Assembly: GCA_039024555.1 (NCBI GenBank) | Contig: JBCCQQ010000048.1 | Coordinates: 1 to 49,656, forward strand | Length of the DNA stretch: 49,656 nucleotides | From: Cyanobacteria bacterium P01_D01_bin.156 | Lineage (GTDB): Bacteria; Cyanobacteriota; Cyanobacteriia; Phormidesmidales; Phormidesmidaceae | Direction: 5' to 3' | Part shown: positions 5,074-48,800 of the stretch, in pieces | Layout of the letters: every line of letters starts with the position of its first letter | Position numbering within the stretch: position 1 is the first letter of the stretch | Position numbers and translations under genes: made by a program | Notes under the pieces: generated by a model | What the model was told of the DNA's origin: nothing | Databases searched by the model: none | The model's input: only the letters and a program-made list of their open reading frames with translations

Positions 5074-6792
5074 ATGCTCTCCATTGCATCCGTCACTGCA
5101 CACCACGCTGCACACTATTACAGCTCAGACGATATCCATGCAGAGGCTGGCCCCAAGAGTCAGTGGCAGGGAAAAGCGGCCCAAGCGCTAGAGCTAGATG
5201 GTTCAGTGGATGCTGACACCTTTAAAGGTCTGTTATGGGGGCACACTCCCGACCACAGACCTCTCCAAAAAGTATTCAAAATCGGCCACACACCTGGCAT
5301 TGATCTCACCTTCAGTGCGCCAAAGTCCATTAGCTTAGCAACCCTCTGGGGAGGCATTCAGACATTACAACAGGCTCATCATCAGGCTATTCGAGCCGCT
5401 CTTCACCTCATTGAATTATCCAGCGGTACTCGATTCTGGCATGGCAGCACGACCCACCAGCATCGATTTACGCAAACTGGCAATCTTCTCATTGCTCAGT
5501 TTTTTCACACCACCAGCCGTGCCCAAGATCCTCAGCTTCATACCCACAACGTTGTTCTAAACACCACCCACACGGGTCAGGATTGGCGTGCTCTCGATAC
5601 CCGTACCTTGTTCAAACATCGCAAACTTTGGCAAACGGTTTACCATCAAGACCTGGCTATCCATGTTCAACAACTAGGCTATAACGTCACTCGTCATCAA
5701 GGACATTTAGAGCTAGCGGGCTATACTGCAGAACAGCTCGACTACTGGTCCAAACGACGACAGCATATTCTGCAGGCGGTTGGCCCCCATGCCTCACGCA
5801 GCCAAAAGCAACGGGCCTGCCTGCAAACCCGACCTAAAAAACAAGGGGGCTATTCCCTAGCCAACCTGCGAGACCGATGGGATGCTGAAAATCAGCGCAT
5901 GGGATTCGGGGTGAATCATCCGGTACCTGGAGTTTCCAAAGTTCCTGATGTTTGCGATCGCATTGCCGCGGCTAGAGATGCATTGGAACACCTCACCGGT
6001 TCTCTTGGTCTGACCGATAGCGTAGATACGCTGACGCTGATTCAAACCGTCTTTGGTGATGATGGTTGGGGCAATCTAGAGCACTCCTTCGGCTATCAAG
6101 ACCTGGCTCAGGCCATTACTGAGGCAACCGAAGAAGGTCATCTCTACAGCAATAATGGTCAGTTAAGCCGGTCTGCAAAGAGTGCGATATCAACCTCTCA
6201 AAAACTAACCGAAGTCCAGACCACACCCTATCCCTACATAGATGCTGTCGGACAATTTACCCAGGCCATTGCCCACAATACACAAGCACTGCTCATTGCC
6301 CCCGTCGAACATCATAGAAGACTTACCCAAGCCGTTCGGCAACGGCTTAACCAATTGGGCACTTTGCATTCTCCCCACATTGCACGTCAACAAGGAGCAA
6401 ATAAAACCACTGACGTGACAATTTATGGGGGAGATCGGCTATGGGTGCCAGGACGCGCTGGTCCTGTTCTAGTTCAGGTACAAGCCACGGATACTCCAGG
6501 ATTCGTTTATCTCAAACATCGCAATGGTAAGGTCACCGAGTGGAATCTTAGTACGCCCAGAGCGTTTAAATTTGCCTGGGTGCAGCCACCCCATCGACTC
6601 CCCAAACACCGAATCGATGAGATCCACCTTGTTGGGGAGATTCGTGATGACCAACTCCAAAAACTCAGCCAAAAAAGTCGCGCTCCCATCACGGTCTATC
6701 GACCTGAAAAAGAGCGCGACGTTCTGACTCAGCCAAAACACACTGCATTTACCATTCCAAATCTGGATCTGGGTCCGGAGAAGGAGCGATGA
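5074..6792 (+). CDS. MOBF (TrwC/TraI-like) relaxase with degenerate, truncated helicase region
   Basis: AAHYY, WQGKAA, DLTFSAPKSIS, HTTSRAQDPQLHTH (HUH), WSKRR. Confidence 0.93.
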   Translation: MLSIASVTAHHAAHYYSSDDIHAEAGPKSQWQGKAAQALELDGSVDADTFKGLLWGHTPDHRPLQKVFKIGHTPGIDLTFSAPKSISLATLWGGIQTLQQAHHQAIRAALHLIELSSGTRFWHGSTTHQHRFTQTGNLLIAQFFHTTSRAQDPQLHTHNVVLNTTHTGQDWRALDTRTLFKHRKLWQTVYHQDLAIHVQQLGYNVTRHQGHLELAGYTAEQLDYWSKRRQHILQAVGPHASRSQKQRACLQTRPKKQGGYSLANLRDRWDAENQRMGFGVNHPVPGVSKVPDVCDRIAAARDALEHLTGSLGLTDSVDTLTLIQTVFGDDGWGNLEHSFGYQDLAQAITEATEEGHLYSNNGQLSRSAKSAISTSQKLTEVQTTPYPYIDAVGQFTQAIAHNTQALLIAPVEHHRRLTQAVRQRLNQLGTLHSPHIARQQGANKTTDVTIYGGDRLWVPGRAGPVLVQVQATDTPGFVYLKHRNGKVTEWNLSTPRAFKFAWVQPPHRLPKHRIDEIHLVGEIRDDQLQKLSQKSRAPITVYRPEKERDVLTQPKHTAFTIPNLDLGPEKER

Positions 6793-15113: not shown

Positions 15114-16625
15114 ATGAGCGATCTACAGAACAATATGGCCTATCAAGAGATGGCCCGGCTGGTCAATTTTGATCAGCCTGATGCGACCATTACTCCACCC
15201 AACAACAGTGATACTTCTCTTCATCATCCAGAAGATACGCCCAGTCCTCGACGGTTTTCTCAAAAGGGCTCGACCAAAATTCTATTTGTCACCGGGGGTG
15301 TTTCAACGGTTGCGCTTTTAGTCGGATTGATTACCAATCAAATCTTTCGACCGGTTTCGGTCACCTCAACAGAGACAACAGAAACATCCTACGAAGCGGA
15401 TGACGGGCTCACGCTATCGTTGGAGCCGCCCTCTGAAAACAAGGGTGAATTGGGAGCTCTCCGTACTGAAGTGGCCCTCAAGGATCAGGCACAGGAATTA
15501 GAGGATATGGATGGGGATCTACCGTCCCAAGCCAATAGCGATGATGCTATCGACAGCGTAGAAACAGCATCGTCTGAAACAACTTCCGTAGCAACGTCTG
15601 CAACCACAACAACAGCCCCTCAGCCTGCTGCATCGCGCTCAGCAACAGCACCTCGGACGGCTCCTGTACAAACAACTCCGGCACCGATTCAGCCGAGAGT
15701 CGTACCCACACCAATGGAACCGGTTAATCCGTGGGAAACGTGGCAACAGTTGGCGCAATCTGGCACTCTGGGTCAGCTGATGTCCCAGAGTTCGTCTACC
15801 GCTCGCCCTAGGTCCTCAACAGTACGACCAACGGTCACACGTCAGTCGGGCACAACAACCATCGGTCCGGCTAGGACCTTATCATCTGAAACATCGTCAC
15901 AACAGCAGGCGGATACGTCCCTCGGCACCTATATCAATGGCCATGCCCCCGTGCCCGGCATGCGTCATGCGACAACGCGTACCCTTGCCATTGGCACAAC
16001 CGCGACAGCCACGGTAACAACACCCATCCTCTGGCCCGGAGACGGGACTCAGACAACTCATTCTAGAGCCCCAGATACGCCTAAATATATTGTCACCCTT
16101 GATGAGGCGTTAACGACAGCCGACAACCACATTGTTTTTCCACGCTCTGCCCAGCTGATTGTGACAGTAGCTCCCATGGATACGGCTTCGGGTGTCGCCA
16201 CTCTCGATGTTTTAGCGGTGTTGCGCGATGCTCAGGCCTACACCATTCCACCGGGTCAGCTCCACATTCGTGGTAAAGCGGGTAATCCTTTGGTGGCTAA
16301 GCGGTTTAACGACCCCGGTGGGGCTATTTTCTCCATGGATGCGGGTCTCTTTGCGATTAGTGGCCTAGCCAATCTGGGCACTATCCTCAATCGCCCCCGC
16401 AGTTCCACCGTGGTTAATTCTGACTTTCAAGGCACCATCGCCAATGACTATGACGATCCAAACTTTATCGGCGCAGTGCTGGAAGGGGGAGCCGGTGCCC
16501 TGGCAGATCGTTTAGCCGAGCGGAATGACCAGGCCATTGAAGCACTGGCAGAACACCCCTCGACCTGGTATCTCCCGGCAGGTACTGAGGTGCAGCTGTT
16601 TGTTAATCAGCCAATGCAGATTTGA
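15114..16625 (+). CDS. VirB10/TrbI-like protein
   Basis: TM, S/T/P-rich linker and a C-terminal beta domain ending LPAGTEVQLFVN. Confidence 0.8.
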   Translation: MSDLQNNMAYQEMARLVNFDQPDATITPPNNSDTSLHHPEDTPSPRRFSQKGSTKILFVTGGVSTVALLVGLITNQIFRPVSVTSTETTETSYEADDGLTLSLEPPSENKGELGALRTEVALKDQAQELEDMDGDLPSQANSDDAIDSVETASSETTSVATSATTTTAPQPAASRSATAPRTAPVQTTPAPIQPRVVPTPMEPVNPWETWQQLAQSGTLGQLMSQSSSTARPRSSTVRPTVTRQSGTTTIGPARTLSSETSSQQQADTSLGTYINGHAPVPGMRHATTRTLAIGTTATATVTTPILWPGDGTQTTHSRAPDTPKYIVTLDEALTTADNHIVFPRSAQLIVTVAPMDTASGVATLDVLAVLRDAQAYTIPPGQLHIRGKAGNPLVAKRFNDPGGAIFSMDAGLFAISGLANLGTILNRPRSSTVVNSDFQGTIANDYDDPNFIGAVLEGGAGALADRLAERNDQAIEALAEHPSTWYLPAGTEVQLFVNQPMQI

Positions 16626-17446: not shown

Positions 17447-20074
17447 ATGGTTCGCTTTATTCTGACGGCTCTTGTGAGCCTAGTCTTTCTGCTTGTTACG
17501 CCCCCGGCCCTAGCTCAGTCTGCAACATCCACGGCGCTCTATCAGGTGCCCCAGGACGATGGCACGGTTTTAGAAGGAGAGATCTTTGATCTGTCTCAGA
17601 TGGCCATCGACGATTTTGGAGCCATTGATCTCTCCGATGAAACCGCCCAGGCTCAGCTCAGTGAAATTGCCCCCACTATCAATCTTGCTCACTTACAACC
17701 GGGTAATTTAGTCGCAGCTCAAGATTATCTCACGCTCAATCTGTTGGATACGGCCTTTGGTGTTGGCGAATGGAGTTTGCGGGATATTGCTCGGCAAACC
17801 TCGGTGTCTCTAGGGGAGATTCCTCTATCTGCCTATGGTGACGCCATGGGTAATGTGTCCTTGGGAGAACTGGCCCATGCGATTCCTGAATTTGCGAGGA
17901 GTACGGCCAACCAAAATTCTATTTTTATGGCCGCCATTGACACCTACCAGGCCCAGCTGTCAAACACAAATCACTCACTGAATCGAGATCTTAGACAGGT
18001 CGGCTATGACAATGCTTATTCGGTTCAAGAGATTCTCGATGGGTACACCCCTGGCCTAGCGGATCTACAGCTAAAGTCTCTTGATGAACAGCTCAATCAG
18101 TGGAGTGTTCTCGATATTCCAGGGCTAAGTACCACTCCAATCCAGGAATTAGATTCATTAGAGAATGCTTTTGTCGGTGATTTTGAGGCGCTAGGTTTGA
18201 CGGATAAGCTGACCCTCAGTGCTTTTCCAAATCCGCCCGTTCTCAATGACATCATCCGCATGGGACGTTTTGATGTGCCCCTAGGTGAACCAGAACACAA
18301 TCGATTGCGGGTCGTCTCGGGCGGTGTGACCCGAGGCGACAAATTTAAGGGGGAACCCTGTGATGGTGGAGGCTGTATCCATGTGGAACTCGATGAAGTG
18401 GGCGCACCACCCTCGTCCGGGCTCAGTGGCTTTGCTTGGATGACGAGTGACCAGCAGGTCCGCGATGGCTATGGACCGCTATGTGCGCCCTTTGGGTGTA
18501 AAGGCCCCGCTGGCAATCATCCTTTTGGTAAGGGCTTTCGTGTGTTGTTTAGCAATCTCAATGAAGCGGAAGGCTCTGTTCAAGTCTCCATCTCGTTTCG
18601 GGCCTGTCGGCGGATTGTGTTTGTTAAAACCTGCACGCCCTATGTTTTTCCCACTCCCAAAGGGATTCTCATTGGCAGCATTCAAGAGAAGGCAATTTTT
18701 CCGGTCACGCCCCCCGATATTAAACTCTCCGGTGATGATTTTAATTATGGCAACACTGGCTATGGTCGTACCGGTAATCGCTATGGCCGAAATCCCTGTT
18801 TCTCTGGAGCAGATGCGGTTACCGGCGATATTGTGGATCGGGCGATTGAAGCACTGTTAACGGTACCACTGTATGACCGTCAGGGTCGGTTAGTTGCCCA
18901 TGGTTGGGATGAAGCGGGTGTCCGAGAACATGCGCCGCTACTCATTGGTGCAGCCCTAGAACAGGGGGTTACGGACCCTGCCCACATTGCTTACATCCTA
19001 GCGACAACCGGTCATGAGGCCCTATTCCGAGGGCCGATTGAAGAGTTTGAATCGGGCTGGCGACGACGGACCGGACCAGGAGACTATGGTGCAGTCCACC
19101 GTGCGACGGGGCATCGGTACTATGGTCGCGGCTATGTTCAAATTACCTGGGCAACAAATTATCAAAAGATTGATCAGGTGCTGGGAACAAACACCTATCA
19201 CAATCCAGACCAGATGCTAGATCCAGCCGTCGCCGCCCCCGCAACTGTAATCGGCATGCGCGATGGGATTTTTACCGCTCGCAGCCTAGACGATTACGGC
19301 TATGGTGACAATTTTGATTGGAATGGAGCCCGCAGCATTATCAACAATGGCGATCTCCGCTCCACTATTGGGGGCTATGGTCAACATATCTATGAATACA
19401 TTAGAAATACGGATACAGACGATGTTCAACGTTCAGACGGGACATCTACCTGTGGCACCGGAGATGGATCGGTTACTTCACCCTTGGGAGGCACCTCGCT
19501 TGAAGACTTATTAAACACCTACCAGCTGGCAGATTTTCAACGGTTTGATGCCTATCGCGCCTACCGCAATGGCTGGCACGGGGGCATTGATCTCGACTAT
19601 CGTGCAGGGGGTGGAGCTGGTGGAGCGGTCAATTCAGTATCTCAAGGAACCGTTGTTTCAGTCGCTCAAATTGGTCATGCCCGTGCCACCGGAGAACCCA
19701 GTGTCCAAGTTGTTGTGATGACCACCGATTCCTTGGGTCGTCAAATCGAACAGCGCTATAATCACTTATCGCTAAGTTCGGTTCAAGCGGCAACCGGATG
19801 TGGATTAGGCGCGTGTAATGTCCCTGTAGGTTCTGGCACCCCCATTGGTGCAGTCGGTCAAGAAGATACCTTATCTAGAGGAGCCCATCTCGATTACAAA
19901 GTAAAGATTGACGGTCAGTTTGTAGATCCATGGGGCTTCCTGCAGGTTCAAGCGGCAGGCGGTTCCGGCACAATCAACACGATTAATTTGGCCACAGGGG
20001 CCATTGGCTCAATCGATGTTGCCCCTCTCAGTGTGCCTACCCCTGACGAAGAGGCCACAGTACCGGCATCTTAA
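17447..20074 (+). CDS. T4SS-associated peptidoglycan hydrolase: large N-terminal domain + GH19-like lysozyme + M23 peptidase
   Basis: Signal peptide; AYILATTGHE..YYGRGYVQITWATNY..ARSIIN (GH19-like); HGGID..RYNHL..GAHLD (M23-like). Confidence 0.85.
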   Translation: MVRFILTALVSLVFLLVTPPALAQSATSTALYQVPQDDGTVLEGEIFDLSQMAIDDFGAIDLSDETAQAQLSEIAPTINLAHLQPGNLVAAQDYLTLNLLDTAFGVGEWSLRDIARQTSVSLGEIPLSAYGDAMGNVSLGELAHAIPEFARSTANQNSIFMAAIDTYQAQLSNTNHSLNRDLRQVGYDNAYSVQEILDGYTPGLADLQLKSLDEQLNQWSVLDIPGLSTTPIQELDSLENAFVGDFEALGLTDKLTLSAFPNPPVLNDIIRMGRFDVPLGEPEHNRLRVVSGGVTRGDKFKGEPCDGGGCIHVELDEVGAPPSSGLSGFAWMTSDQQVRDGYGPLCAPFGCKGPAGNHPFGKGFRVLFSNLNEAEGSVQVSISFRACRRIVFVKTCTPYVFPTPKGILIGSIQEKAIFPVTPPDIKLSGDDFNYGNTGYGRTGNRYGRNPCFSGADAVTGDIVDRAIEALLTVPLYDRQGRLVAHGWDEAGVREHAPLLIGAALEQGVTDPAHIAYILATTGHEALFRGPIEEFESGWRRRTGPGDYGAVHRATGHRYYGRGYVQITWATNYQKIDQVLGTNTYHNPDQMLDPAVAAPATVIGMRDGIFTARSLDDYGYGDNFDWNGARSIINNGDLRSTIGGYGQHIYEYIRNTDTDDVQRSDGTSTCGTGDGSVTSPLGGTSLEDLLNTYQLADFQRFDAYRAYRNGWHGGIDLDYRAGGGAGGAVNSVSQGTVVSVAQIGHARATGEPSVQVVVMTTDSLGRQIEQRYNHLSLSSVQAATGCGLGACNVPVGSGTPIGAVGQEDTLSRGAHLDYKVKIDGQFVDPWGFLQVQAAGGSGTINTINLATGAIGSIDVAPLSVPTPDEEATVPAS

Positions 20075-20606: not shown

Positions 20607-21185
20607 ATGAGATTTCCTAACAAATCACTCCTCATACTGGCGGCCTGCATCGCCGTTGTTCTCTTTACTGGTTCCTCACTGCTGGCTCAGTCAACCTCGG
20701 TCACAGTTGAGGAACTGCAACGTGAAACCTCGATTCCGGTACTTATACCGGATGCAACAACTCTAGCGATGGAAAGTCCCCTTTATCCTGAGATTATGTA
20801 CTCTGGACCAGAGGGCTATTATGTGGCCTATGGATGGACTGAACACTGTGCTGATGCAGGCTTTTGTAACCATGCTCGGGTCAAAGGATATCGCATTGGC
20901 TCCACAGTCTCTCACTTTAAGCCGGAGTCTCTTGAGGCACTGATTGCGGAGCGTACTGAAGTGCTTGCGGAAGCACCCTACAGGTCGCCAGATCCTATTG
21001 AAACGATCTCGCTGACTGATGGGTCGAACGCAACGGTGCTGCCCTGGTATTCCTACACCAATCCGGGCAATACCGAGGTCATCTTTGAACGGGAGGGTAT
21101 TCGCTATCTCTTTGCCATTGAAATGGCTCCCAATGCGGAGGTGATTGCCATGGCCAATTCCGCACTAATGGGGTCTCCTCAGTAA
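20607..21185 (+). CDS. Secreted hypothetical protein (paralog of previous gene)
   Basis: Signal peptide, IPVLIP motif, C-terminus GIRYLF..NAEVIAMANSAL. Confidence 0.75.
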   Translation: MRFPNKSLLILAACIAVVLFTGSSLLAQSTSVTVEELQRETSIPVLIPDATTLAMESPLYPEIMYSGPEGYYVAYGWTEHCADAGFCNHARVKGYRIGSTVSHFKPESLEALIAERTEVLAEAPYRSPDPIETISLTDGSNATVLPWYSYTNPGNTEVIFEREGIRYLFAIEMAPNAEVIAMANSALMGSPQ

Positions 21186-21189
21186 TGCC

Positions 21190-22965
21190 ATGGTCTATTT
21201 CGTTCGTCTCATACAACTCGCATCCATCTCTAACAGCTTTTTGTCGTCCCTATCCCCCCAGCAGCTGGGTATCGTGGGCGTCTGCATCGTGGGGATTTTG
21301 GCCCTTATTATTCTGGGTAACCGAGGCGGGGGCCGTAAATCTCGGCTGGCCACCAGCCGCTGGGCTAAAGGGGGCGACCGCAGCCGTGCTAAAAAACGGG
21401 CAAAACAACAGATTAATGGACGAGAGAAAAATAAGGTCACTCTCTGGGTCAATGGTCCCAAACTCAAATTGGTGCACCATGAAAAGAAATCCACTCAATA
21501 TAGAGTCTCAGGCGATCATAAAACCATTTACATTCCCGATGCCCAACGCGGCATTTCGATAATTGGGGGTCCCGGTACGGGTAAAACCTTTAGCGTCATC
21601 GACCCAGTCATTCGCTCCGCCATTGCCCAAGGGTTTCCTCTCTGTCTCTATGATTTTAAATACCCGGCTCAAACCCAGCGGGTGGCAGCACTGGCCCAAG
21701 CTGCAGGCTATGAGGTGAATATCTTTGCACCGGGATTTCCGGAATCTCAGGTGTGTAATCCGTTGGATTTTATCCAGGATGCTACCGATGCCGCCACCGC
21801 CCGACAAATTGCAGAGGTGCTCAATCGCAATTTCAAACTCTCGGCGGCTCAAACTGACGATCCGTTCTTCTCAAATTCCGGTGACCAGCTTGTAGAAGCA
21901 ACGCTGTTATTAGCAAAGGCCTTACCCCATCCTGATGTGATGACGGCCTACACCATCCTCAGCGATCCAGACCTGATCAATCGACTCAAGGGCATCAACA
22001 CCATTAATCCCTGGGTGGGTGTAGCGTTTGGTCAGCTGTTGAGTACGGCCAAATCTGAAAAGACGGTGGCGTCCATTGTGTCCACCGCCGCCCTGGTCTT
22101 TACCCGGTTTATGAAAGCGGGCATGTTACCGGCCTTTTGTGGCCAGTCTACGCTGCCCTTAGATATGACGGGAAAACGGTTGCTTATTTTTGGCATGGAC
22201 CGTAACAAACGGGATGTGGTGGGTCCATTGGTGGCCACAGTTCTCCATATGGTGATTACCCGCAATGTGACTCAGCCCCGCACGGACCCACTCGTTGTTG
22301 TTTTAGATGAATTACCGACGTTGTATCTTCCCAGTCTCGTTCAGTGGCTCAATGAAAATAGAGAAGATGGTCTGTGCACCCTAATCGGCTATCAAAACCA
22401 GAATCAGTTGGAAAAGGCCTACGGAAAAGAGCTGGCCCAGGCGATCTTTGGGGGCACGGCTTCTAAATTTATGTTTAATCCTCAGAGTGCCGAATCGGCG
22501 GATATGTTTAGCCGCATGCTGGGGGATGAGGAGATTCGCTATAAATCTAAGTCTCGTAATACAGGTGGCGGTAAAACCAGCACCACACGGGCAGATCAAG
22601 AACGCACCCGGCGGTTATTTGCACCCGAACAGTTTAATCGTTTGCCCCAAGGGCATTGTGTCTATATCAATCCTGGCTATGGCACTCGTAAAGAAGGCTC
22701 TGTTCCCCAAAAGCTCACTATCAAGGTCACCTCCCGTGAGGTGAAGGCGCAAACGTTAAGTGTTCAATGTTGGGAGTCCCTCAAACAGGCTCTCATTGCT
22801 CGCGGGATTGGCACCATTCCCCAAGATCCCGATGCAGTCACTATTCGAGAACAGGAATTTCAGGCACGCTTACCCATTGTGGGCAACAACGATACGGCCA
22901 TGCCGACAGGCAATGCACTAACCACACCATCAGGGATACCTCACACCCTATCTAGGCAGATTTAG
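21190..22965 (+). CDS. virD4: Type IV coupling protein (VirD4/TraD family)
   Basis: N-terminal TM; Walker A GGPGTGKT, YDFKYP, Walker B VVLDELP, GYQNQNQL..YG. Confidence 0.92.
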   Translation: MVYFVRLIQLASISNSFLSSLSPQQLGIVGVCIVGILALIILGNRGGGRKSRLATSRWAKGGDRSRAKKRAKQQINGREKNKVTLWVNGPKLKLVHHEKKSTQYRVSGDHKTIYIPDAQRGISIIGGPGTGKTFSVIDPVIRSAIAQGFPLCLYDFKYPAQTQRVAALAQAAGYEVNIFAPGFPESQVCNPLDFIQDATDAATARQIAEVLNRNFKLSAAQTDDPFFSNSGDQLVEATLLLAKALPHPDVMTAYTILSDPDLINRLKGINTINPWVGVAFGQLLSTAKSEKTVASIVSTAALVFTRFMKAGMLPAFCGQSTLPLDMTGKRLLIFGMDRNKRDVVGPLVATVLHMVITRNVTQPRTDPLVVVLDELPTLYLPSLVQWLNENREDGLCTLIGYQNQNQLEKAYGKELAQAIFGGTASKFMFNPQSAESADMFSRMLGDEEIRYKSKSRNTGGGKTSTTRADQERTRRLFAPEQFNRLPQGHCVYINPGYGTRKEGSVPQKLTIKVTSREVKAQTLSVQCWESLKQALIARGIGTIPQDPDAVTIREQEFQARLPIVGNNDTAMPTGNALTTPSGIPHTLSRQI

Positions 22966-25587: not shown

Positions 25588-28500
25588 ATGGATTTCGCTG
25601 CCCAACAAAAACTTGTCACCGCATTCCAGGATTACTTCCTGGCTGGTAACGGCTTCTCCACTATCGTGCAGGCACGACAGTTTGCTAGTGACCAGTTGGA
25701 GCAGGTATTAGATCCGCTATCGTCTGATCATAAACAGGTGGATGAGGGGATCGAGAAGGCGATTGTTCGCACGGCTCGACAGTTGATTTTGGGGACTGAC
25801 TCGCTCGTACCATCCGTCACTACCCATCAGGCCTTTGACCGGCTAACGGAATTACTCAGTCGTCAACCTCGACTAGCGGTGCGCACATCCACATCCATGG
25901 CCCAGCAGGCCTACAGTACGCCCATTCCCATTGCCTATTTTGCTGCCACCCTAGCAGGCATTGATGCGAATACGGTGGTTTATGAACCCACTGCAGGCAA
26001 TGGTGCTCTTTTAATCTCGGCAAATCCAGCCCGAGTGATTGCCAATGAGTTAAACGATGATCGGTTTAGAGAACTACAGCATCAAGGGTACGCCCAGCTG
26101 ACACAACAGAATGCCTGTGACTATTCTCCCGCTCAGGGCATAGTGGATGTTGTGATTACTAACCCACCGTTTGGTCGTACCCGAGATCCGACAACCGGAC
26201 AAAGCCAACGGTTCACCATTGGCGATACCTGGAGTGCCCAGTTAGACCATGCCATTGCGTTTAAGGCCCTCGATGCTCTCAAAGAGGACGGTCGTGCTGT
26301 CCTAATTATTGCGGCTCCGCATCGTCGCTCTCAACAGATTACCGATGAGTATCGTGCTAACCAGTACAACGAACGCGAAACCCGTGGATTCTTTTTTAAT
26401 CTCTATCGCCATTACACCGTTACGGATCATCTCACCCTCGATGGAAACCTCTATGCCAAACAGGGAGCTGGGGCTGATATTGATTTGATTGTGATTCAGG
26501 GCCGACGGGCTGCGCGCGATGGCCCCTTGATACGAGCCTTGCCCGCCGTTGATGTGCCTCCCATACTCACTACCTTTAACCAGCTTAAGGAGAGATTGCC
26601 CAATGTTTCCCTATCCCACCTATCCCAAACTTTGGAGGCCCCAGGAGAATCCAGACATTCTGACGGTGAAGGTACCCCAGAGCCATACTCAGCTAACGGA
26701 CCGCATTTACCGAGAGCTGATGGAGGAACGGCTGAGCTGGCTGATATGGGAAGCGATCTCAACCAACGGTCACAGTCTGATGGAGATTCACCAAACCCTG
26801 AATCAGTTTCTCTCCCAAACAGCACCCACCCAAATATCACCGGATCTGCCGAAGGACGAAGACGATCAGATTCAATGGTGTCAGGACTGGGCACAGACAC
26901 TGGTCCAGGGGAACGAGATCGTTCGAATGACTCTAAATACAGCGGAGCTGACCATCGTCCCACTGACGCCAGACAGCTCCCACTATTCTCAAGGACTGGA
27001 GCTACACGACAACACTACCCTACACATCTGGCTCGATACGGTGAAACCCTAGCCATGGTTGACTCTATTTCTACCCCTAAAGAAACCACCCAAGTCCCTT
27101 ATCAACCGCGCAGTCAGGGCCGTTCCATGGACACGCTGATTCCGCGTAATATGGCCAATTCGGCTCAGGTGGCGCTGATGCGCTTTGAGCAACAGCATGG
27201 CAATATCGATGAGTTTGTTCGCACTAGTCTGGGCTACAGCTCTATCGGTGAACTCCACCAGCGGTTATACGCGGAACAAATCGATACCATTGGCCTCGCC
27301 ATTAGTAATCTCAACCGGGGTAATGGCTTTGTCATTGGTGACCAGACGGGCATTGGTAAAGGCTGTCAGTGTGCGGCCATTATGGCCTACAGCACCCGCC
27401 AGGGAAAACCGGTGGTGTTCTTTACTCAGAAAAATGCGCTGTACAAGGATATTCTGCGGGATTTGGAGACGATCGGCGTACGAGATTTTGCTCCCTTTGT
27501 CACCGACAGCAATGCCAAGATTGAGCTGGGCAAAGGGGCCATGCTACGCACCGGCAGCCATGGTCAACAAGAACAAGAGATGAACCGCCTCATGGGAATG
27601 GGGAATCTTGGGTCCTATGATGCGGTGTTTACCACCTACAGCCAGATTCAAACGGTAGCTCAAAAAGAACCGCTGCGGCGACACTTTTTAAGATCGCTCG
27701 CTGAACGGGGTGCTATTTTTATCTGCGATGAAAGTCACGAGGCGGGCGGCTCTCCCCAAACGGGCTGGCAGATTAATGGCGCACCGCCAAACCGGGCTGA
27801 CTTTATGCGCGAGCTGATCGATACGACTCTGGCCAGTGGTGGTGGGGTGATCTACAGCAGTGCCACCTATTCCAAACGCCCTGATGTAATGGACCTTTAT
27901 GCCCGCAGTACTGACCTACGCTACGCGGTGGGGAAACATCGGTCTTTGGAAGCTACGTTACGGGTGGGTGGAGTACCGCTGCAGCAGGTGATTGCAGCTA
28001 AATACGTAAAATCGGGGCAGATGATGCGCCGGGAGCGATCGTTTGAAGGAGTCTCTTTTGACACGCTGACGGTCCCGGCTGATCAGGAAACGGCGGACCA
28101 GTTTTCGGCGGCGATGCGGGCGATTAATGCATTTGACCGGGCGAAACAAAAAGAGGTTAAAAAGCTCAGCAAGGAATTGCGCAAAGAAGCAAAACAATTG
28201 GCTTTGGATAACGCTATCGGACAGGTAGGCGTTAAATCGACAAACTTTACCAGCCTGATGCACAACTGCATTGAGCAGGGGTTATTAGCACAAAAAGCAG
28301 AGGCCACGGTTCAAACAACAATTCAAGAACTTGAAGCGGGACGTAAGCCGGTCATTGCCTTGGACAATACCATGGGAGCCTTTATTGATGCCTGGGCAGA
28401 CACCCATGATGCGAAACCGGGAGACCGGGTCAATATTACCTTTTCAGATCTCTTGGCCCGTTACCTAGAGCGCTCTCGCGATATTGCCATTACCAACCAT

Positions 28501-31500
28501 ACGGGACGACGAGACCGTAGACCCATGACCGATGAGGAATTGGGTGTTGATGGTTTGGCGGCCTATCTGGAAGCAAGAGACATTATCGAGGATAGCGATC
28601 TCTCTCAGATTCCCATTAGCCCCATTGACTATATTCGAGGCCGTTTAGAACAGGCGGGCTACACCACCACTGAAGTCACGGGACGCAAATCGGTGCTCGA
28701 CTATGATGCTGATGGCTCAGCGGTGTACAAGACTCGTTCCGCCAAAGAGATTTCGACCAATGGCAAAATTGCAGCAGTTAATGACTTTAACAGTGGTCAG
28801 GCCGATGTGATTATCATCAACCGCTCTGGGGCTACGGGGATTTCACTTCATGCTTCAGAAACCTTTGATGACCAGCGGCCACGGGTGATGATTGTGGCCC
28901 AGGCTAGCCGAGATATCAATACCTTTATGCAAACCCTCGGGCGAATTCACCGCACGGGTCAAGTAGAGCTGCCGAATTACAAACTTCTGATAACTGATTT
29001 ACCGGCTGAAAAACGACCGGCAGCTATCCTCAGCCGCAAGATGGCCACCCTTAATGCCAATGTCACGGCGGATCGGGAGACGGCGACGTCTATCCAGGGT
29101 GTCGTGGACTTTTTTAATGAGTATGGCGAGACGGTCATCACCCAGTTGCTTGAAGAGATGCCAGAACTCAATGAGAAGCTGGATGATCCGTTGGGTCGGG
29201 CCAATGACAATGATTTAGATCTGGTGTCTAAAGTAACAGGGCGTTTGCCATTGTTGCCGGTAGCGGAACAAGAACGCACCTATCAGCTGATCGAGACCGG
29301 ATATGCCGACCTGGTAGCCCAAAAGGAAGCCATGGGTGAAAGTTTGCTCCAGGCAGATCAGCTGGATTTGGATGCTCGCACTATTGCCCGCATGGAGGTG
29401 GTTCCGACAGACACCCAGTTTCAAACGGAATTTAGTGGGCCGGTGTATCTGGAAGTCATTGATGCAAAATCTCTGGGTAAGCCGTTGACCCAGGTGCAGG
29501 TGGCGAACCAGGTACGAGAGTTTTTTGAGCTGCCCCTCAGTCAACAGGTGGCCGAGGCTCATTGGGTCCGGCTGAAAGATCAAGGGAATGAGCGGGCAGC
29601 CACCATGATTGAATCGGTGACCGCCAGTACTCAACATTACAAAAATGGAAAACTGGCAAGCCTAGAAGTACTCAAAAAACAACAATTAGAACATCTGCCT
29701 GAAGGGGCTGAAGCGCCAGCACAAGAGAAAATCGACAAGCTCACCCAGAAGCTGGATGCGCAGCTGGCGTTTGTCACCAAACAACTCAAAGATTTTCCGA
29801 TGGGCACATCGGTCAAGATTACGCGGCAGCAGAACCAGACCACCGCCGATACGTTTTATGGAGTGATTACGGGAGTGGACCATCGAGATCGCGGAAGTGC
29901 TCCATCAGTCCCCAGCTCCTGGCATCTACGGGTGGCCCTTAGCAATGGCGATGTGAAATCCATGGCGATTCCGTTATCCGCTCTCAATAGTACTCAGCGT
30001 AAAGGTAAAACCGTTGGAGAAGCACTGACCATGGAGCCTGTTGAGCAGGATATGTGGACGGGGAAATCAATCTACGAAATGTTTGATCTCCAGCAGCAGG
30101 ATGCGCGGCAGCAGCGACAGGTGTTGACGGGTAATTTGGTGAAGGCGTGCGATCGCTATCCCGAAGGTAAGCTGCTCAACTTTACCGACCACAAAAATCG
30201 TATTCGTCAGGGGCTATTGCTACCCAAGTCCTTTGATATTGCCGATAAGCTCAGAAATGAACCGGTGGTCTTTGAAACGGCCCAGCAGGTCCATACGTTT
30301 TTAACGGAGGTCACTGAAGGACGCGGTGGCCTCAAAACCTTGGATGGAAATTTGTCCATTCGTCTGCACGGCAGTGGAGAGGGTTTGATTTTAGAAGCGC
30401 CTAGGGCCAAGGAAACGGGAGGAAAATACTATCTCAATTCAAGTTTGATTGACCGCATTGGCAAGGACTTTGTCTCCCGTGGCGACACCATGCGGGTCTT
30501 GGTACCGCCTGAGAATGCAGAGCGTACGTTGAATTCCATCATTACCCTTAATCCCATTGCCTGTGTCGATCCACGGTATTTACCCAAGGCCCGAGAACAC
30601 ATGGGAGTGACCATTCCAGAGTTAGAAACAGCGGCCGATGGTCAAGTGTTAGACGTCGAAGATGAGTTTATTGAAAGCAGCGGGGTGCCCTATGTGGACG
30701 ATCCAACACCGCAAGATATTGAGTCGTTGGAGGCATTATTTGCTCGGGGGGAGGATGCGAACTTACTCTCCGAGCAAGCATCAGAATCTTCACCAGTGGA
30801 GGAATCAGGTCCTACTGACGAGACTCCTGAACCAGCTCCTATCATTGAAACGCCTCAAAGTTCAGACAACCCATCCTCTATCCAACAGGTTGCTCTGAGC
30901 AAATACCAAACACGCATGGCAGAGAAGTTTATTTCTAAATTTCTCCATGAGGCAGACCTGGCAGAAAAAGTGGTGGCAGGAGACGACTTTCATCTGAAGA
31001 TTGAGAATGAGCCGTATATTCCGCTTGTCGTCGAAGCGCACAAACTAGCGGATGATCAGTATCAGCTCTATCTCACCCATTACATCGACATCAATGGCGA
31101 CCTCGTCCACGATGGGGAAATGGTCTTCAACATCCTGTCTGATGGCATTCTTCAATTGGATCAGACCGCTACTCAAGATCCTTTTCGCGGTGGAGAACAT
31201 CGAGTCTATGACGGTGGGGACCGATACTTTGCCAAACGGTTTGCGATGAATATTCGTGCCCAGGGCTTTGGTGAAGCGGCACGGGCACAGCTGGACCAGG
31301 TAACTATTACCCATGACGAGGAACCAGACGTTAATCCTGAAGAACACACTCTAGAATCTTCTACACCAGAAGCGATTCAGCCGTCTCTGTTGGATGGACC
31401 AGCAGGGATTGGAGATTATTCCCTAGATACAAACGGCGCAGATCCCAGTTGGGGGAATCCTGAACCAACAGAACATACCCAACACCATGACCAGCAAATA

Positions 31501-33000
31501 CCAAATCTAGAGCCACAGGACATCCCTCCACTCAAACCCTTGAGTGCTGATGCTCAACGAGACATGGCTCAACAGGATCGGGAGGCCTTAATTACCCAGG
31601 CACGGGCCATGGATTTAGAACAGGTTGCCCTATCCCTGGGCTTAGAGCGCAACACCTCTGACAAATCTAAATGGCACTTTGGCAGCCATGCGATTTCCAT
31701 CTCGGCTAACAAAGGTCTTTTTAATGATTGGCAGGCCCATAAAGGCGGTAGTGGGGCCATTGACCTAGTACTCCATATCAATGAGGACTGGGACTTTACG
31801 CAAGCGGTGGAATGGCTCACGGGCGACTCCATGGTATCGGTTCCATCGTTCCAGGAAGCTCAGGCCATTTTGCAAAAAGCCCAGCAGCCGACCGTCGAAC
31901 CGCTCATTATTCCGAAAACGGCATCGGCGAATTGGAGCAAAGTCCACGCTTATCTCACCCAGGACCGACGGATTCCAGCTGACATTGTTCATCAAGCTTT
32001 TCAGCAGGGTGTTGTCTTTGCCGATGAGCGCAGCAATGCGGTATTTACCATGCAGCAGCTACGGCAGGAGAGTCTCACTGGAGAACCCTCTGATAGTCTT
32101 CGAGCAGGAGCCATTACGGGCTATGCCCTAAGAGGCACGGCTGGAGAGTATAAGCATATCGCCAAGGGCTCCTCAAAATCAGACGGGTGGTTTCTGTTTC
32201 ACTCAGGTCAAAATGCCCAGCGCATCGTGATCACGGAATCGCCCATTGAGGCGTTATCATTGGCGGCCATGGAGCGCAGTGACACCACCCTCTATCTGGC
32301 CCTTAATGGCAATAGTCCCTTACCGGTCGAGCAGCTACAGCACCACATTGCCCAAGGTGGCGAAGTGATGACGGCTTTTAACAACGATGCGGCTGGCATG
32401 AATCTTAGTACGCGAGTGCTAGAACACTTACCTGAGGCAACAACCCTTTATCCAGACAGTGATTTTAACGATTGGAATGAGCAGCTATGTCATCAGCCAG
32501 AGATCTATCAACATCCAGAACAGGATCTTCTCACAGCTCCGGCCCTTGATGATTTGCGAGATTGGTATCGCAAGGCCGCATTCATGCAGCGGGGACCAGA
32601 ACACCAGGCCCAGATTGCTCAGGTAGGGCGTGGTGAACGAGACTTTATAGAGCGGGATGCAGCCGCGATGGCCGCCGATAACCGGGCCTTTGCGCTATCC
32701 GAACGCTTTATTCAGCATGCACAGCACATGCTGGCCCAGTGGGGGCAATCCCAGGGGGATGGGACATTGGCCATCGATATTGATCAGTATCATCTGCGCG
32801 GTTCGCCCGATGGGCTGAGTCTTTCAGTAACAACCGATGACAGTAAACCGTTGCTCCAGGTGGAGCAGGGGACACTCAACCACGTCACGATTACACCTAA
32901 TGACGCTCAGCGTTTTGAAACCCTAGGTGCTCAAGCGCGACAGGAACATTTACAAACACACCGAACTCACAGTCCACCCTCGAATGAAATAAGCCGATGA
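25588..33000 (+). CDS. Polyvalent protein: N6-adenine methyltransferase + strawberry-notch SF2 helicase + DUF6908-like + DUF3991/Toprim-like domains
   Basis: YEPTAGNG and ITNPPFG; GDQTGIGKG, DESH, SSATY, SGATGISLHA, QTLGRIHRTGQ; LKIENEPYIPLVVE..HY..NGDL; GSGAIDLV, ITESPIEALS, DWNE. Confidence 0.92.
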   Translation: MDFAAQQKLVTAFQDYFLAGNGFSTIVQARQFASDQLEQVLDPLSSDHKQVDEGIEKAIVRTARQLILGTDSLVPSVTTHQAFDRLTELLSRQPRLAVRTSTSMAQQAYSTPIPIAYFAATLAGIDANTVVYEPTAGNGALLISANPARVIANELNDDRFRELQHQGYAQLTQQNACDYSPAQGIVDVVITNPPFGRTRDPTTGQSQRFTIGDTWSAQLDHAIAFKALDALKEDGRAVLIIAAPHRRSQQITDEYRANQYNERETRGFFFNLYRHYTVTDHLTLDGNLYAKQGAGADIDLIVIQGRRAARDGPLIRALPAVDVPPILTTFNQLKERLPNVSLSHLSQTLEAPGESRHSDGEGTPEPYSANGPHLPRADGGTAELADMGSDLNQRSQSDGDSPNPESVSLPNSTHPNITGSAEGRRRSDSMVSGLGTDTGPGERDRSNDSKYSGADHRPTDARQLPLFSRTGATRQHYPTHLARYGETLAMVDSISTPKETTQVPYQPRSQGRSMDTLIPRNMANSAQVALMRFEQQHGNIDEFVRTSLGYSSIGELHQRLYAEQIDTIGLAISNLNRGNGFVIGDQTGIGKGCQCAAIMAYSTRQGKPVVFFTQKNALYKDILRDLETIGVRDFAPFVTDSNAKIELGKGAMLRTGSHGQQEQEMNRLMGMGNLGSYDAVFTTYSQIQTVAQKEPLRRHFLRSLAERGAIFICDESHEAGGSPQTGWQINGAPPNRADFMRELIDTTLASGGGVIYSSATYSKRPDVMDLYARSTDLRYAVGKHRSLEATLRVGGVPLQQVIAAKYVKSGQMMRRERSFEGVSFDTLTVPADQETADQFSAAMRAINAFDRAKQKEVKKLSKELRKEAKQLALDNAIGQVGVKSTNFTSLMHNCIEQGLLAQKAEATVQTTIQELEAGRKPVIALDNTMGAFIDAWADTHDAKPGDRVNITFSDLLARYLERSRDIAITNHTGRRDRRPMTDEELGVDGLAAYLEARDIIEDSDLSQIPISPIDYIRGRLEQAGYTTTEVTGRKSVLDYDADGSAVYKTRSAKEISTNGKIAAVNDFNSGQADVIIINRSGATGISLHASETFDDQRPRVMIVAQASRDINTFMQTLGRIHRTGQVELPNYKLLITDLPAEKRPAAILSRKMATLNANVTADRETATSIQGVVDFFNEYGETVITQLLEEMPELNEKLDDPLGRANDNDLDLVSKVTGRLPLLPVAEQERTYQLIETGYADLVAQKEAMGESLLQADQLDLDARTIARMEVVPTDTQFQTEFSGPVYLEVIDAKSLGKPLTQVQVANQVREFFELPLSQQVAEAHWVRLKDQGNERAATMIESVTASTQHYKNGKLASLEVLKKQQLEHLPEGAEAPAQEKIDKLTQKLDAQLAFVTKQLKDFPMGTSVKITRQQNQTTADTFYGVITGVDHRDRGSAPSVPSSWHLRVALSNGDVKSMAIPLSALNSTQRKGKTVGEALTMEPVEQDMWTGKSIYEMFDLQQQDARQQRQVLTGNLVKACDRYPEGKLLNFTDHKNRIRQGLLLPKSFDIADKLRNEPVVFETAQQVHTFLTEVTEGRGGLKTLDGNLSIRLHGSGEGLILEAPRAKETGGKYYLNSSLIDRIGKDFVSRGDTMRVLVPPENAERTLNSIITLNPIACVDPRYLPKAREHMGVTIPELETAADGQVLDVEDEFIESSGVPYVDDPTPQDIESLEALFARGEDANLLSEQASESSPVEESGPTDETPEPAPIIETPQSSDNPSSIQQVALSKYQTRMAEKFISKFLHEADLAEKVVAGDDFHLKIENEPYIPLVVEAHKLADDQYQLYLTHYIDINGDLVHDGEMVFNILSDGILQLDQTATQDPFRGGEHRVYDGGDRYFAKRFAMNIRAQGFGEAARAQLDQVTITHDEEPDVNPEEHTLESSTPEAIQPSLLDGPAGIGDYSLDTNGADPSWGNPEPTEHTQHHDQQIPNLEPQDIPPLKPLSADAQRDMAQQDREALITQARAMDLEQVALSLGLERNTSDKSKWHFGSHAISISANKGLFNDWQAHKGGSGAIDLVLHINEDWDFTQAVEWLTGDSMVSVPSFQEAQAILQKAQQPTVEPLIIPKTASANWSKVHAYLTQDRRIPADIVHQAFQQGVVFADERSNAVFTMQQLRQESLTGEPSDSLRAGAITGYALRGTAGEYKHIAKGSSKSDGWFLFHSGQNAQRIVITESPIEALSLAAMERSDTTLYLALNGNSPLPVEQLQHHIAQGGEVMTAFNNDAAGMNLSTRVLEHLPEATTLYPDSDFNDWNEQLCHQPEIYQHPEQDLLTAPALDDLRDWYRKAAFMQRGPEHQAQIAQVGRGERDFIERDAAAMAADNRAFALSERFIQHAQHMLAQWGQSQGDGTLAIDIDQYHLRGSPDGLSLSVTTDDSKPLLQVEQGTLNHVTITPNDAQRFETLGAQARQEHLQTHRTHSPPSNEISR
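26603..27052 (+). CDS. Nested overlapping gene (+1 frame, 149 aa) inside the methyltransferase-helicase linker
   Basis: AAGGAG at 26587-26592, ATG at 26603, TAG at 27050-27052; globular-looking sequence where the host frame is disordered. Confidence 0.65.
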   Translation: MFPYPTYPKLWRPQENPDILTVKVPQSHTQLTDRIYRELMEERLSWLIWEAISTNGHSLMEIHQTLNQFLSQTAPTQISPDLPKDEDDQIQWCQDWAQTLVQGNEIVRMTLNTAELTIVPLTPDSSHYSQGLELHDNTTLHIWLDTVKP

Positions 33001-45897: not shown

Positions 45898-48800
45898 CTA
45901 GATTAGGCCAATAGCCTGATCAGGGTTCGACACATCGGGCACAATGGCAAAGTCGCTTTCACCAAGGGCAGAGGCTTGAACATTGTTCAAAATAGCCAAG
46001 GTCTCACCTGTGGTGGAAATACCCAATAGAGTATTTGTCCCATCTTGAGTCAGTGTGACGTCTGCGAATGTGAATTCGCCTTCGACAATACCAATGCGGT
46101 CGATACCTACCTCGAAGTCGAGGACAGTATCAGTGCCATCACCACTGCCAAAGACAAACAAGTCACTGCCGCTGCCATCAGAGAAGTTATCACCCACCAG
46201 GATGTCGTTACCGGTGACACCCATGAGGATATCGTCACCGTCATCACCATAAATTAGGTCATCGCCTTCATCACCGCTGAGGATATCATTACCGGCTTTA
46301 CCACCAATACGGTCGTTACCGGCACCACCAAAAATGATGTCGTTACCACCAGCGACATCATCCTGAGGGGAACGAGAGTTTAGATCACCCCGAAGGACAT
46401 CATCACCGTCGCCACCTTCAATAATGTCGTTACCGAGTTCGCCAGCAATGGTGTCATCGCCATCGGTACCAGCAAGGGTATCATCACCATCAGTTGGTTG
46501 ATTACTAACAACAACATCGTCGATGGTGATGTCAAGGGCACTAGCTGCTGGGTCTACCTCATAGGCTTCGCCATCAACTAACGTAAAGTTCAGAGTCTCG
46601 ATGCCTTCGCCTGGGCCATCATCAAACACTGGAACCGTGATAGTTGCCGTCGGATCGGTGATGCGCAAGAACAGTGAACCTGCAACTTCATCCGTGCCAA
46701 CAATGTTGCCGCCTGTGACCACCACTCCTTCGACCACAGTCTCATCCTCAGGCAAACGAGGATTCGTTGCATTCACATCGAACTCAGCAATCGCACGAGG
46801 CGGTCCCTGTAGCTGAACGACTAAACCACCTTCAGGAATTGCACCGTCTGTGGTGAAGGTTAGTTCAACAACGGTTTGCTCAGCTTCAACTAGCGTAGTG
46901 GGTGTTGCAGTAACGCCAACGGTTGGACTGGTCGCAGGAACCACACCATCGCTGACGGTGAATGTACCCGAGTTCGCAGTTGGGTCAACAACATACCCTT
47001 CGCCTTCCGCAAGCGTATAGGTAAAGGTTTGGTCCACCTCTTGGGCTAGGTCATCCGATACCGGCAATGTAATGCTGGCTGTTGACTCCGTGATGGTAAA
47101 GCTAAAGTTACTCAAGAACCCTGTGCCTGCGGCAGCGGGGTCAGAGTTATCTTCTGCTGGGTCACCATCCTCTAGCGAGAACACATCCAGCGTGCCACCC
47201 TCAAGACCTGCTCCAGGTCCAAAGGAGGTGTCAAAGCGATAGAGGATAGTTCCTTCATCGGTTACACGAGTTTGAACCGCACCATCTCCATCCGGAGCCA
47301 AGAACTGCTGCAGAATCTCAGCCGTGTCGCCTTCTAGATTTACCGTGATGCCGCCTTCTGGAATCTCGCCATCCACTGTAAAGTTTAGGACCAAAGCTGG
47401 ACCATCCACTTCACTTAACGTTCCAGATGTTGTGCTGAAGCTCACCACTGGGTCAGAGGCACCGCCATCATCTACGACACTGACAATGGCATCAACACGA
47501 GCATCGCCCACATCGGCGCCTGCCAAGTCAGCATTGCCTAGAGCAGCGGCTACTTCTGGGGCCAGTAGTAAGTCTGCATCTCCCAGGTTCAAATCATCCC
47601 CATCGATTCCCGATACCGCAGCGGTTGCTGGAATACCCAAATCGAACAACACTTCTAAACCTAGAGCGTCATCTAATGTGTCGGCGACAAAGAAGCCACT
47701 AGCCACATCTGAGGCACGGGCTGGATCAAAGCCGATGGAGAACTCACCAGCGGTGACCTCTGCACTACCAACTCCTAAGGTGATAGTGCCATCATGTTCG
47801 ATGCTGCCACCCGAGGGAACAAAGCCAACTGGGGCAAAACTAAAGTCTGTTTCTTCGGTAATCTCAAATCCAACTTGGAATGGAGGTAAGAAGCCAGGAC
47901 GAGGTTCTGGAACAGCATCACTATCGGCACCAACCAGAGTGATGCCTGCTACTTGCTCTAAGAGCTCAAAGTCTAAGAAGACGCTAGTAACCCCAGATTC
48001 GAAACTATATTCTGCATCTTCGCCACCGTCTGCGATGGTTACGGTGACGTTCTGAGCATCAGGGTCAACTTCGTATATTTCCCCATCAGCTAGGCTAAAC
48101 TCTAAGGTTTCAGTCCCCTCGTTGGGTCCATCGTCAAAGACTGATAGGGTAATAGACGCTTCTGGTTCTACTACAGTCACAAAGAAGCCACCATTACGAT
48201 CCCCTTGAAGAGGGAAATCATCAATACCGACCAAATCTGTTGCAGGATCAATGCCGTCCTCTCCAAAGATGACGAATTCCCCTACGTCAGTCGGTCCACT
48301 ATCTATGAACAGCTCAAGACCACCATCTGGAATGGCCCCAGTGCTTTCATCCACTGAAATGTTGACTGTGAATTCGTCTCCTTCGACTAATTCAGTTTCG
48401 GTCACCGATAGGCTAACTGTTGGTCCTTCCCCAGGGGTTGCACTCGGTCCATCTTCAATGCCAATACTGACAGTTCCTGTACCGATGTTGTAACCGTCAC
48501 TTGGCAAGATCTCAAAGTTTAAAACATCTCGTTCTTCTTCGACCAGGTCATCAAAGAGCCCTGCTGTGACTGTAACTTCTGGGACCAAAAGACCAAGAGT
48601 TACTTCTGTTCCTGTGAAACTAATGGGAACTACGCCATCTGCTGGGTCGAAAACAGGAGGAGTTCTTTCGTCAAGAAGTCTTGGAGCAAACAGTTTTTCA
48701 ACCCCATCACCACCAATGGTTACTACTACCCCTTGGCCATCGTCAGGAATCTCACCCTCCACAGATAATGTGATTTCTAGCTGTGGTTGCTCATCTTCAG

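Follow-up and report, generated by a model that had tools for sequence, protein, structure and literature searches.

The closest described counterparts of the locus considered here are of two kinds, namely DNA methyltransferase (MTase) genes that carry a second gene in another reading frame, and fusions of an MTase with a SWI2/SNF2-type ATPase. In M.EcoHK31I, the beta chain is described as encoded wholly in another frame inside the MTase gene, and the two chains must associate (PMC2836561). The HNH element of ShiLan is described as an out-of-frame insertion in an actinophage methylase gene, a patchily distributed homing endonuclease without a Shine-Dalgarno (SD) motif (PMC11855218). The archetype of the MTase-SWI2/SNF2 dyads is P1 DarB, which protects incoming phage DNA from type I restriction; in the description of these dyads, transfer with the DNA and protection against restriction are shown for P1 DarB only, and the portions of that description consulted make no mention of gene overlap (PMC5512222). 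DarB has a small helper encoded next to it, Ulx (PMC9024508, PMC11437467), of which it is reported that it "aids DarB localization" (PMC9024508).

The locus described here was found in a 49,656-nucleotide stretch of cyanobacterial DNA (hereafter the window), in which a very long gene, referred to as the host gene, contains a second gene, termed X, in its +1 frame. The features needed for the discussion are as follows.

5074-6792: gene for a TrwC relaxase, further upstream of the host gene
15114-16625: TrbI-like gene, further upstream of the host gene
21190..22965, + strand: gene for a type IV coupling protein, part of the host gene's gene run
25588..33000, + strand: host gene, a single open frame for a 2470-aa polyvalent protein
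25588..26601, + strand: MTase module of the host protein (aa 1-338), with NPPF at 26161-26172 and a predicted complete fold
26587..26592, + strand: SD motif of X, AAGGAG, within the codons of the last MTase helix
26602..27051, + strand: main-frame linker under X, a low-complexity spacer whose residues vary freely and whose stop-free state is kept
26603..27052, + strand: gene X, nested and read in the +1 frame; its 149-aa product has a pI of 4.7, consists mostly of alpha-helices and belongs to no known family
27055..27057, + strand: main-frame ATG 2 nt past the X stop, a possible helicase-only restart, without SD in the window
27088..29400, + strand: strawberry-notch helicase (Pfam AAA_34, Helicase_C_4), with Walker A at 27337-27363, DExH at 27727-27738 and motif VI at 28930-28959

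The host protein unites an N6-adenine MTase, a strawberry-notch SWI2/SNF2 helicase, DUF6908 and DUF3991/Toprim. Predicted alone, the MTase module reaches a pLDDT of 94.7 and a pTM of 0.93, and among solved folds it comes closest to type I HsdM and TaqI-class MTases; given the NPPF motif and these N6-MTase folds, it does not belong with the C5-cytosine MTases. By its domain matches, the host is an MTase-SWI2/SNF2 polyvalent protein, in which an EcoKI/TaqI-like adenine MTase is joined to a SWI2/SNF2-type ATPase and which is encoded on a mobile element. The relaxase, coupling protein and TrbI-like genes mark a conjugative element around the host gene, and homologues of the host gene lie on plasmids and viral contigs. 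Two other genes are worth recording: an 875-aa protein with glycoside hydrolase 19 and M23 peptidase domains (17447-20074), located within the conjugation gene run and likely a cell-wall hydrolase for transfer, and, elsewhere in the window's genome, an MTase-only paralogue (L259, G000:C1:48161-48856) with a 570-codon open frame, a different C-terminal part, and neither helicase nor X.

The nested gene had been proposed from the letters of the window, and its description proved accurate. The +1 frame is open from the ATG at 26603 to the TAG at 27050-27052 and yields the 149-aa product as quoted, and the AAGGAG lies 10 nt before the start. The main frame over the same span, claimed to be disordered, is 51% S/G/D/R/P, and the sequence TAG-CC-ATG places a main-frame Met at 27055. 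X thus lies wholly inside another open reading frame (ORF) of the same strand, in a different frame, and its product would be a separate acidic, helical protein of ~17 kDa. A longer version from a TTG at 26549 (167 aa), reported by the ORF finder, does not use the conserved start. An antisense ORF at 26496-26963 is absent as a kept ORF in the close relatives of the window. Other long same-strand alternate-frame ORFs of the window, at 21185-21562, 18447-18860 and 47324-48055 (+), of 125, 137 and 243 aa, lie within larger genes or opposite them.

An open +1 stretch of 150 codons is by itself no proof of a gene. When the longest such stretch is taken from each flanking domain of the homologues, the median is 58 codons for the MTase and 73 for the helicase, with maxima of 153 and 146, respectively, and synonymous recoding of the window linker left the +1 frame open in 3 of 100 cases. 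X goes beyond chance because its position, its start signal and its protein sequence are conserved across homologues.

A tblastn search with X returned six cyanobacterial plasmids at 26-32% identity, in each case under an annotated strawberry-notch/helicase gene, along with one weak stray match. The wider set of loci was gathered via the helicase rather than via X, and it comprised 80 of the 140 loci from genomes, all 44 from viruses and 80 of the 105 from metagenomes, together with plasmid records and further loci; since the search patterns were derived from seven X-bearing cyanobacterial helicases, this set leans toward the X-bearing cyanobacterial clade. An MTase lies upstream at 215 of 234 helicase loci, and the 19 loci lacking it were set aside. 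Collapsing identical linkers left 178 unique ones. Two loci are artefacts of assembly, L231 being an inverted join and L190 adapter-like junk. The match at L012 was rejected as a chance similarity in an unrelated ORF with neither MTase nor helicase nearby.

The MTase and helicase halves share one frame in 174 of the 178 linkers, and the main frame is open in 173 of these 174. When the +1 frame is required to start between -9 and +30 nt from the MTase end and to span at least 85 codons, 167 loci qualify, with lengths of 89-198 codons (median 160). L027, although among these 167, is spurious, its ORF being basic and without a match to the X family, and two loci outside the rule, L118 and L136, match the X profile. 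The start falls at +7 or +10 from the MTase end in 157 of the 167, the start codon being ATG in 161, GTG in three and TTG in three, and an SD-like motif precedes it in 152 of the 167, compared with 166 of the 2999 other +1 ATGs that served as controls. Family profiles match 171 of the 178 linkers, 170 of them in the +1 frame of the helicase, a count that is partly circular as the profiles were built from the same loci. The linkers without a match are those of six distant plasmid genes (L026-L031) and L141.

For fifteen loci the sole match is to the short-form profile of X (~95 aa), which is linked to the long-form profile with 74% probability and an E-value of 2.7e-5. This short form, of 89-111 aa and devoid of the N-terminal W-x-P part, occurs in viral and metagenome contigs (L127, L129, L130, L132, L137, L139, L140, L144, L145, L147, L149, L155, L219, L223, L228 and L230). 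GenBank phages searched with a phage-type X gave no match. Among 401 genomes of the phylum, the same nine contain both the host gene and X. On short contigs, gene callers do call X: nine such proteins were found at 69-82% identity, and the four inspected have a start and stop identical to those of X. The X profile matches 520 called representative proteins, and the names found for members of stand-alone size are "hypothetical protein" or technical labels only.

Selection was compared in both frames. Between the window and six close relatives, with helicases 95-97% identical, X is 75-77% identical and the main-frame linker 60-65%; dN/dS ranges over 0.22-0.26 in X, 1.5-2.1 in the main linker and 0.02-0.03 in the helicase, and the third codon position of X takes most of the substitutions. 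All 44 disjoint pairs of loci give X the lower dN/dS and the higher identity (median dN/dS of 0.19 for X, 1.69 for the main linker and 0.038 for the helicase), so that conservation tracks the X frame and does not follow the main frame only. As these values come from a counting method that ignores overlap, the main-linker dN/dS above 1 is the shadow of selection on X and not positive selection. The main frame carries a signal of its own. Random synonymous recoding of X in the window is expected to create 7.0 main-frame stops, none of 100 recodings was stop-free, and none is seen; over the loci, the mean expectation is 6.9 stops (lowest 1.35), and none is present in 173 of 174. The absence of the expected stops points to selection on the main frame as well, with the full fusion and X both kept, and supports the reading that selection maintains the full MTase-linker-helicase fusion. 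X therefore has the marks of a nested gene: its own conserved start, purifying selection on the inner frame, and an outer frame kept open.

The product is also predicted to fold, in line with the composition that had been attributed to it. AlphaFold2, run with 88 sequences, models X at a pLDDT of 95.0 and a pTM of 0.90 as a short N-terminal strand pair followed by helices, and W11, R43 and P119 are nearly invariant. The family is acidic, with a median pI of 4.55 and a net charge of about -7 per 100 aa. Searches for known relatives were blank: Pfam and PHROGs gave no match to X, and among the 88 members one and four stray single-member matches, respectively; the best E-value against PDB sequences was 0.71; the ESM Atlas gave no usable match; Foldseek against PDB and BFVD returned nothing with E <= 0.001; and VIA-align against 48,161 chains gave a best Z of 3.9, with none at or above 5. 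These blanks do not establish a new fold. A crude and shallow covariation analysis of X against either enzyme half (79 and 74 loci) gave no signal above shuffled pairing. The claim that annotation overlooks a hidden gene here is borne out by the start-signal, selection and profile comparisons, and on this sequence evidence X is confirmed as a real, widespread, unannotated nested gene without a fold match.

As for expression, translation from 25588 would run straight on to yield the complete MTase-linker-helicase-Toprim protein, whose linker of 150 residues would serve only as a flexible tether, while other ribosomes would initiate internally, at the +1-frame SD/ATG (26587/26603), and produce X separately. 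The linker DNA would be shaped by X, the main frame merely avoiding stops. We regard this dual-coding architecture as almost certainly right, given both open frames, the start signal, the selection acting on X and the stable fold. No stop-codon read-through is involved, contrary to the suggestion that the outer genes are joined in that way, for the main frame is simply open. Promoters before X were found twice, against 2.0 expected by chance.

The original prediction also envisaged a helicase-only isoform, made by ribosomes that end X and restart at the next main-frame ATG. In 62 representative loci of the cyanobacterial type, hand-picked from the 88 alignment rows, a main-frame ATG lies -6 to +45 nt from the X stop in 38, against 68 of 513 control windows, and carries an SD-like motif in 23, against 7 of 513. 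Over all loci, such an ATG occurs in 86 of 130 outside IMG/VR (44 with SD) and in 4 of 37 within IMG/VR (none with SD), and the 2-nt spacing that had drawn attention is peculiar to the window, the only one of the 130 non-IMG/VR loci to have it. Since kin are not independent, these counts support a lineage-limited restart only, in part of the cyanobacteria, where ribosomes may restart and yield a helicase-only form.

Relatives with other arrangements bear on the autonomy of X and on its origin. In plasmid 1 of Leptolyngbya boryana NIES-2135 the host gene is permuted, with the helicase first and the MTase later in a 3499-aa gene, and directly before it lies a free-standing X homologue, BAY59332.1 (L240:8123-8623, corresponding to AP018204.1 206122-206622; profile E-value 1.7e-7). 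Freed from the overlap, X is here retained as a separate annotated gene. In-frame MTase-X fusions occur in P0082, P0132, P0174 and L053, and an X-helicase fusion in L101; these five involve single-base frame changes and may be real variants or indel/assembly errors. An X-like domain also forms the C-terminus of longer unrelated proteins, namely P0133 (WP_128000194.1), which has a GIY-YIG domain, P0158 (TVQ99295.1), P0117 and P0160; viral scans with P0133 returned nothing and those with P0158 three loci, all without X. In JBCCNE010000001.1, two inverted helicase copies (L084/L085) each follow only the 3' part of X, without an MTase.

No match to the X family was found in L026-L031, an Acinetobacter homologue, a Nostoc homologue and P1 darB. 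Between MTase and helicase, the +1 frame of darB is open over 177 codons (L239, codons 646-823); this stretch was considered as a candidate X and rejected, as it is basic, of low complexity, without family match and probably due to chance. Judging from these sequences, X is not required by the MTase-helicase family as a whole, its distant proteobacterial relatives being without it. In distant relatives, MTase and helicase are fused directly through a short linker and X is missing, or, in one case, the two are split without X between them. The Persicobacter plasmid NZ_AP025302.1 (L028) shows such a split: its MTase and helicase are two genes that overlap by 4 nt, with no X between. The cultured Bacteroides phage BS-TP4 has, in gp3, a 5391-aa protein beside the portal gene, an unannotated 119-aa +1 ORF directly after the MTase (PQ571277.1, L236:8794-9150); with an E-value of 0.002 to L150 and no X-profile match, its homology is weak, and it therefore counts by position only.

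The arrangement had been explained as a former three-gene operon. Three separate genes for MTase, X and helicase are found at none of the 178 loci, and the operon is one of three candidate origins, beside insertion into the linker and overprinting. On the unrooted helicase tree the X label needs two changes, and a single origin is not rejected (p-AU 0.35).

Regarding function, the reading we put forward is that X is a dedicated accessory subunit or chaperone-regulator of the host protein, an assignment that we regard as about evenly balanced between right and wrong. It is proposed because X is small, acidic, strictly co-occurring with the host gene and adjacent to it after rearrangement, and because small partners are known for M.EcoHK31I and DarB. 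X would bind the host protein in the donor or infected cell and keep it soluble or switched off until delivery; the host protein would be delivered with the element DNA, by conjugation or in the virion, and would methylate and protect that DNA; nesting would lock the two genes together. Against such a role counts the prediction that the MTase folds completely without X. A more ambitious version, in which X is a new-fold partner that gates host activity or loading into the conjugation channel or virion, belongs to an old, cross-phylum family and is accompanied by helicase alone from coupled restart (three proteins from one ORF), is conceivable, though we lean against it. Were it true, low-complexity linkers in giant proteins of mobile elements may be shadows of hidden genes.

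Somewhat less probable again, and on balance doubtful, is the main rival, namely that X is separately translated but acts alone against the host, for example as an acidic inhibitor of a defence or DNA-binding complex, nested as an anti-restriction cargo companion. Polyvalent proteins are described as collecting conflict domains (PMC5512222), and the X family is acidic (pI below 5.5 in 154 of 167) and diverges fast, with a mean column identity of 22% against 40-45% for the enzyme halves. The X-like domains that terminate unrelated proteins, such as P0133 and P0158, likewise fit an independent role. Its net charge is, however, modest; the negative charge of Ocr and ArdA is far above it, and no chain of the Ocr/ArdA type is among the fold matches listed for X, although X may still have such a fold. 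Nor was a second, unlinked copy present at any collected locus, and the co-occurrence with the host gene is strict (nine of nine genomes). That X is mainly the C-terminal domain of an MTase-X fusion, made by programmed +1 frameshifting at the MTase end, is improbable. X always begins directly where the MTase ends, including in the 15 loci where over 300 nt separate it from the helicase, and in-frame MTase-X fusions exist; yet these are single or near-single records, perhaps indel errors, and are accompanied by an X-helicase fusion as well. Internal initiation is favoured over frameshifting because the first codon is only ever ATG, GTG or TTG at a fixed place, an SD motif lies mostly 7-10 nt upstream, in 58 of 166 loci a +1 stop precedes the start by 0-2 codons, and no slippery word within 4 nt before the start is conserved across loci. 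Less credible still is a selfish insertion comparable to the out-of-frame HNH element of actinophage methylases, tolerated because the host frame runs through it without stops: the layout equals that of the ShiLan element (PMC11855218) and relatives without the insert exist, but no HNH or other nuclease family appears among the Pfam/PHROG matches of the 88 members, X is fixed in its clade (171 of 178) rather than patchy, the X-less relatives are distant, no empty alleles were seen among close relatives, the SD is built into MTase codons, and X is kept as a free gene after rearrangement. As to the open +1 frame being a by-product of linker composition, with the main frame alone translated, the open stretches of up to 153 codons in the flanking domains lend it some plausibility, and it is refuted by selection, the start signal, the family-wide motif, the confident fold and the free-standing homologue; we give it practically no credence.

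Nested out-of-frame genes are a known kind, and no description of the X family or of its type of locus was found in the open-access literature searched. To our knowledge, bacteria have few same-strand genes that are long, lie entirely within another gene and are clearly supported by evolutionary comparison. X is conserved at well over 100 distinct loci of plasmids and phages, and selection is measurable in both frames. The anti-restriction toolkit of mobile elements is extended by a protein family that annotation has missed, for which the model is confident and no fold match was obtained. Its presence on plasmids of named cultured cyanobacteria makes direct testing possible, and a simple screen suggests itself, in which the S/G/D/R/P-rich linkers of giant proteins from phages and plasmids are inspected for what their +1 frame holds.

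Compared with the systems from which this account started, X shares with M.EcoHK31I its location in another frame inside a DNA methyltransferase gene; that enzyme, however, is a C5-MTase whose beta chain supplies motif IX of the catalytic core, whereas the host here is of the N6 type and predicted complete alone, and X sits after the MTase, in the interdomain linker. In the lambda Rz/Rz1 spanins, too, a gene is embedded in the +1 frame of another and its product partners the outer protein, but these are membrane lysis proteins, unrelated to X in sequence and role. The ShiLan HNH gene, as far as its description goes, is likewise an out-of-frame gene in a methylase gene, stop-free in the host frame and forming a loop there, whereas X matches no nuclease, is preceded by an SD and is fixed across a wide clade of plasmids and phages. 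The host protein resembles P1 DarB in joining an adenine MTase to a SWI2/SNF2-type ATPase and in being encoded on a mobile element, and Ulx, as described, resembles X in size; in contrast, the host helicase is of the strawberry-notch type, darB has no X match, and ulx lies after darB and not inside it. X and Ulx are not alike in sequence (hhalign probability 0.1%, E-value 0.63). In layout, X matches, as these are described, the engineered overlapping alternate-frame insertion, OAFI (10.1101/2024.11.07.622342), and the spacer of the HBV polymerase over PreS (PMC9093120); but the former is synthetic and the latter belongs to an animal virus, while X is found in bacterial plasmids and phages and is thus a natural counterpart of the engineered alternate-frame insertion.
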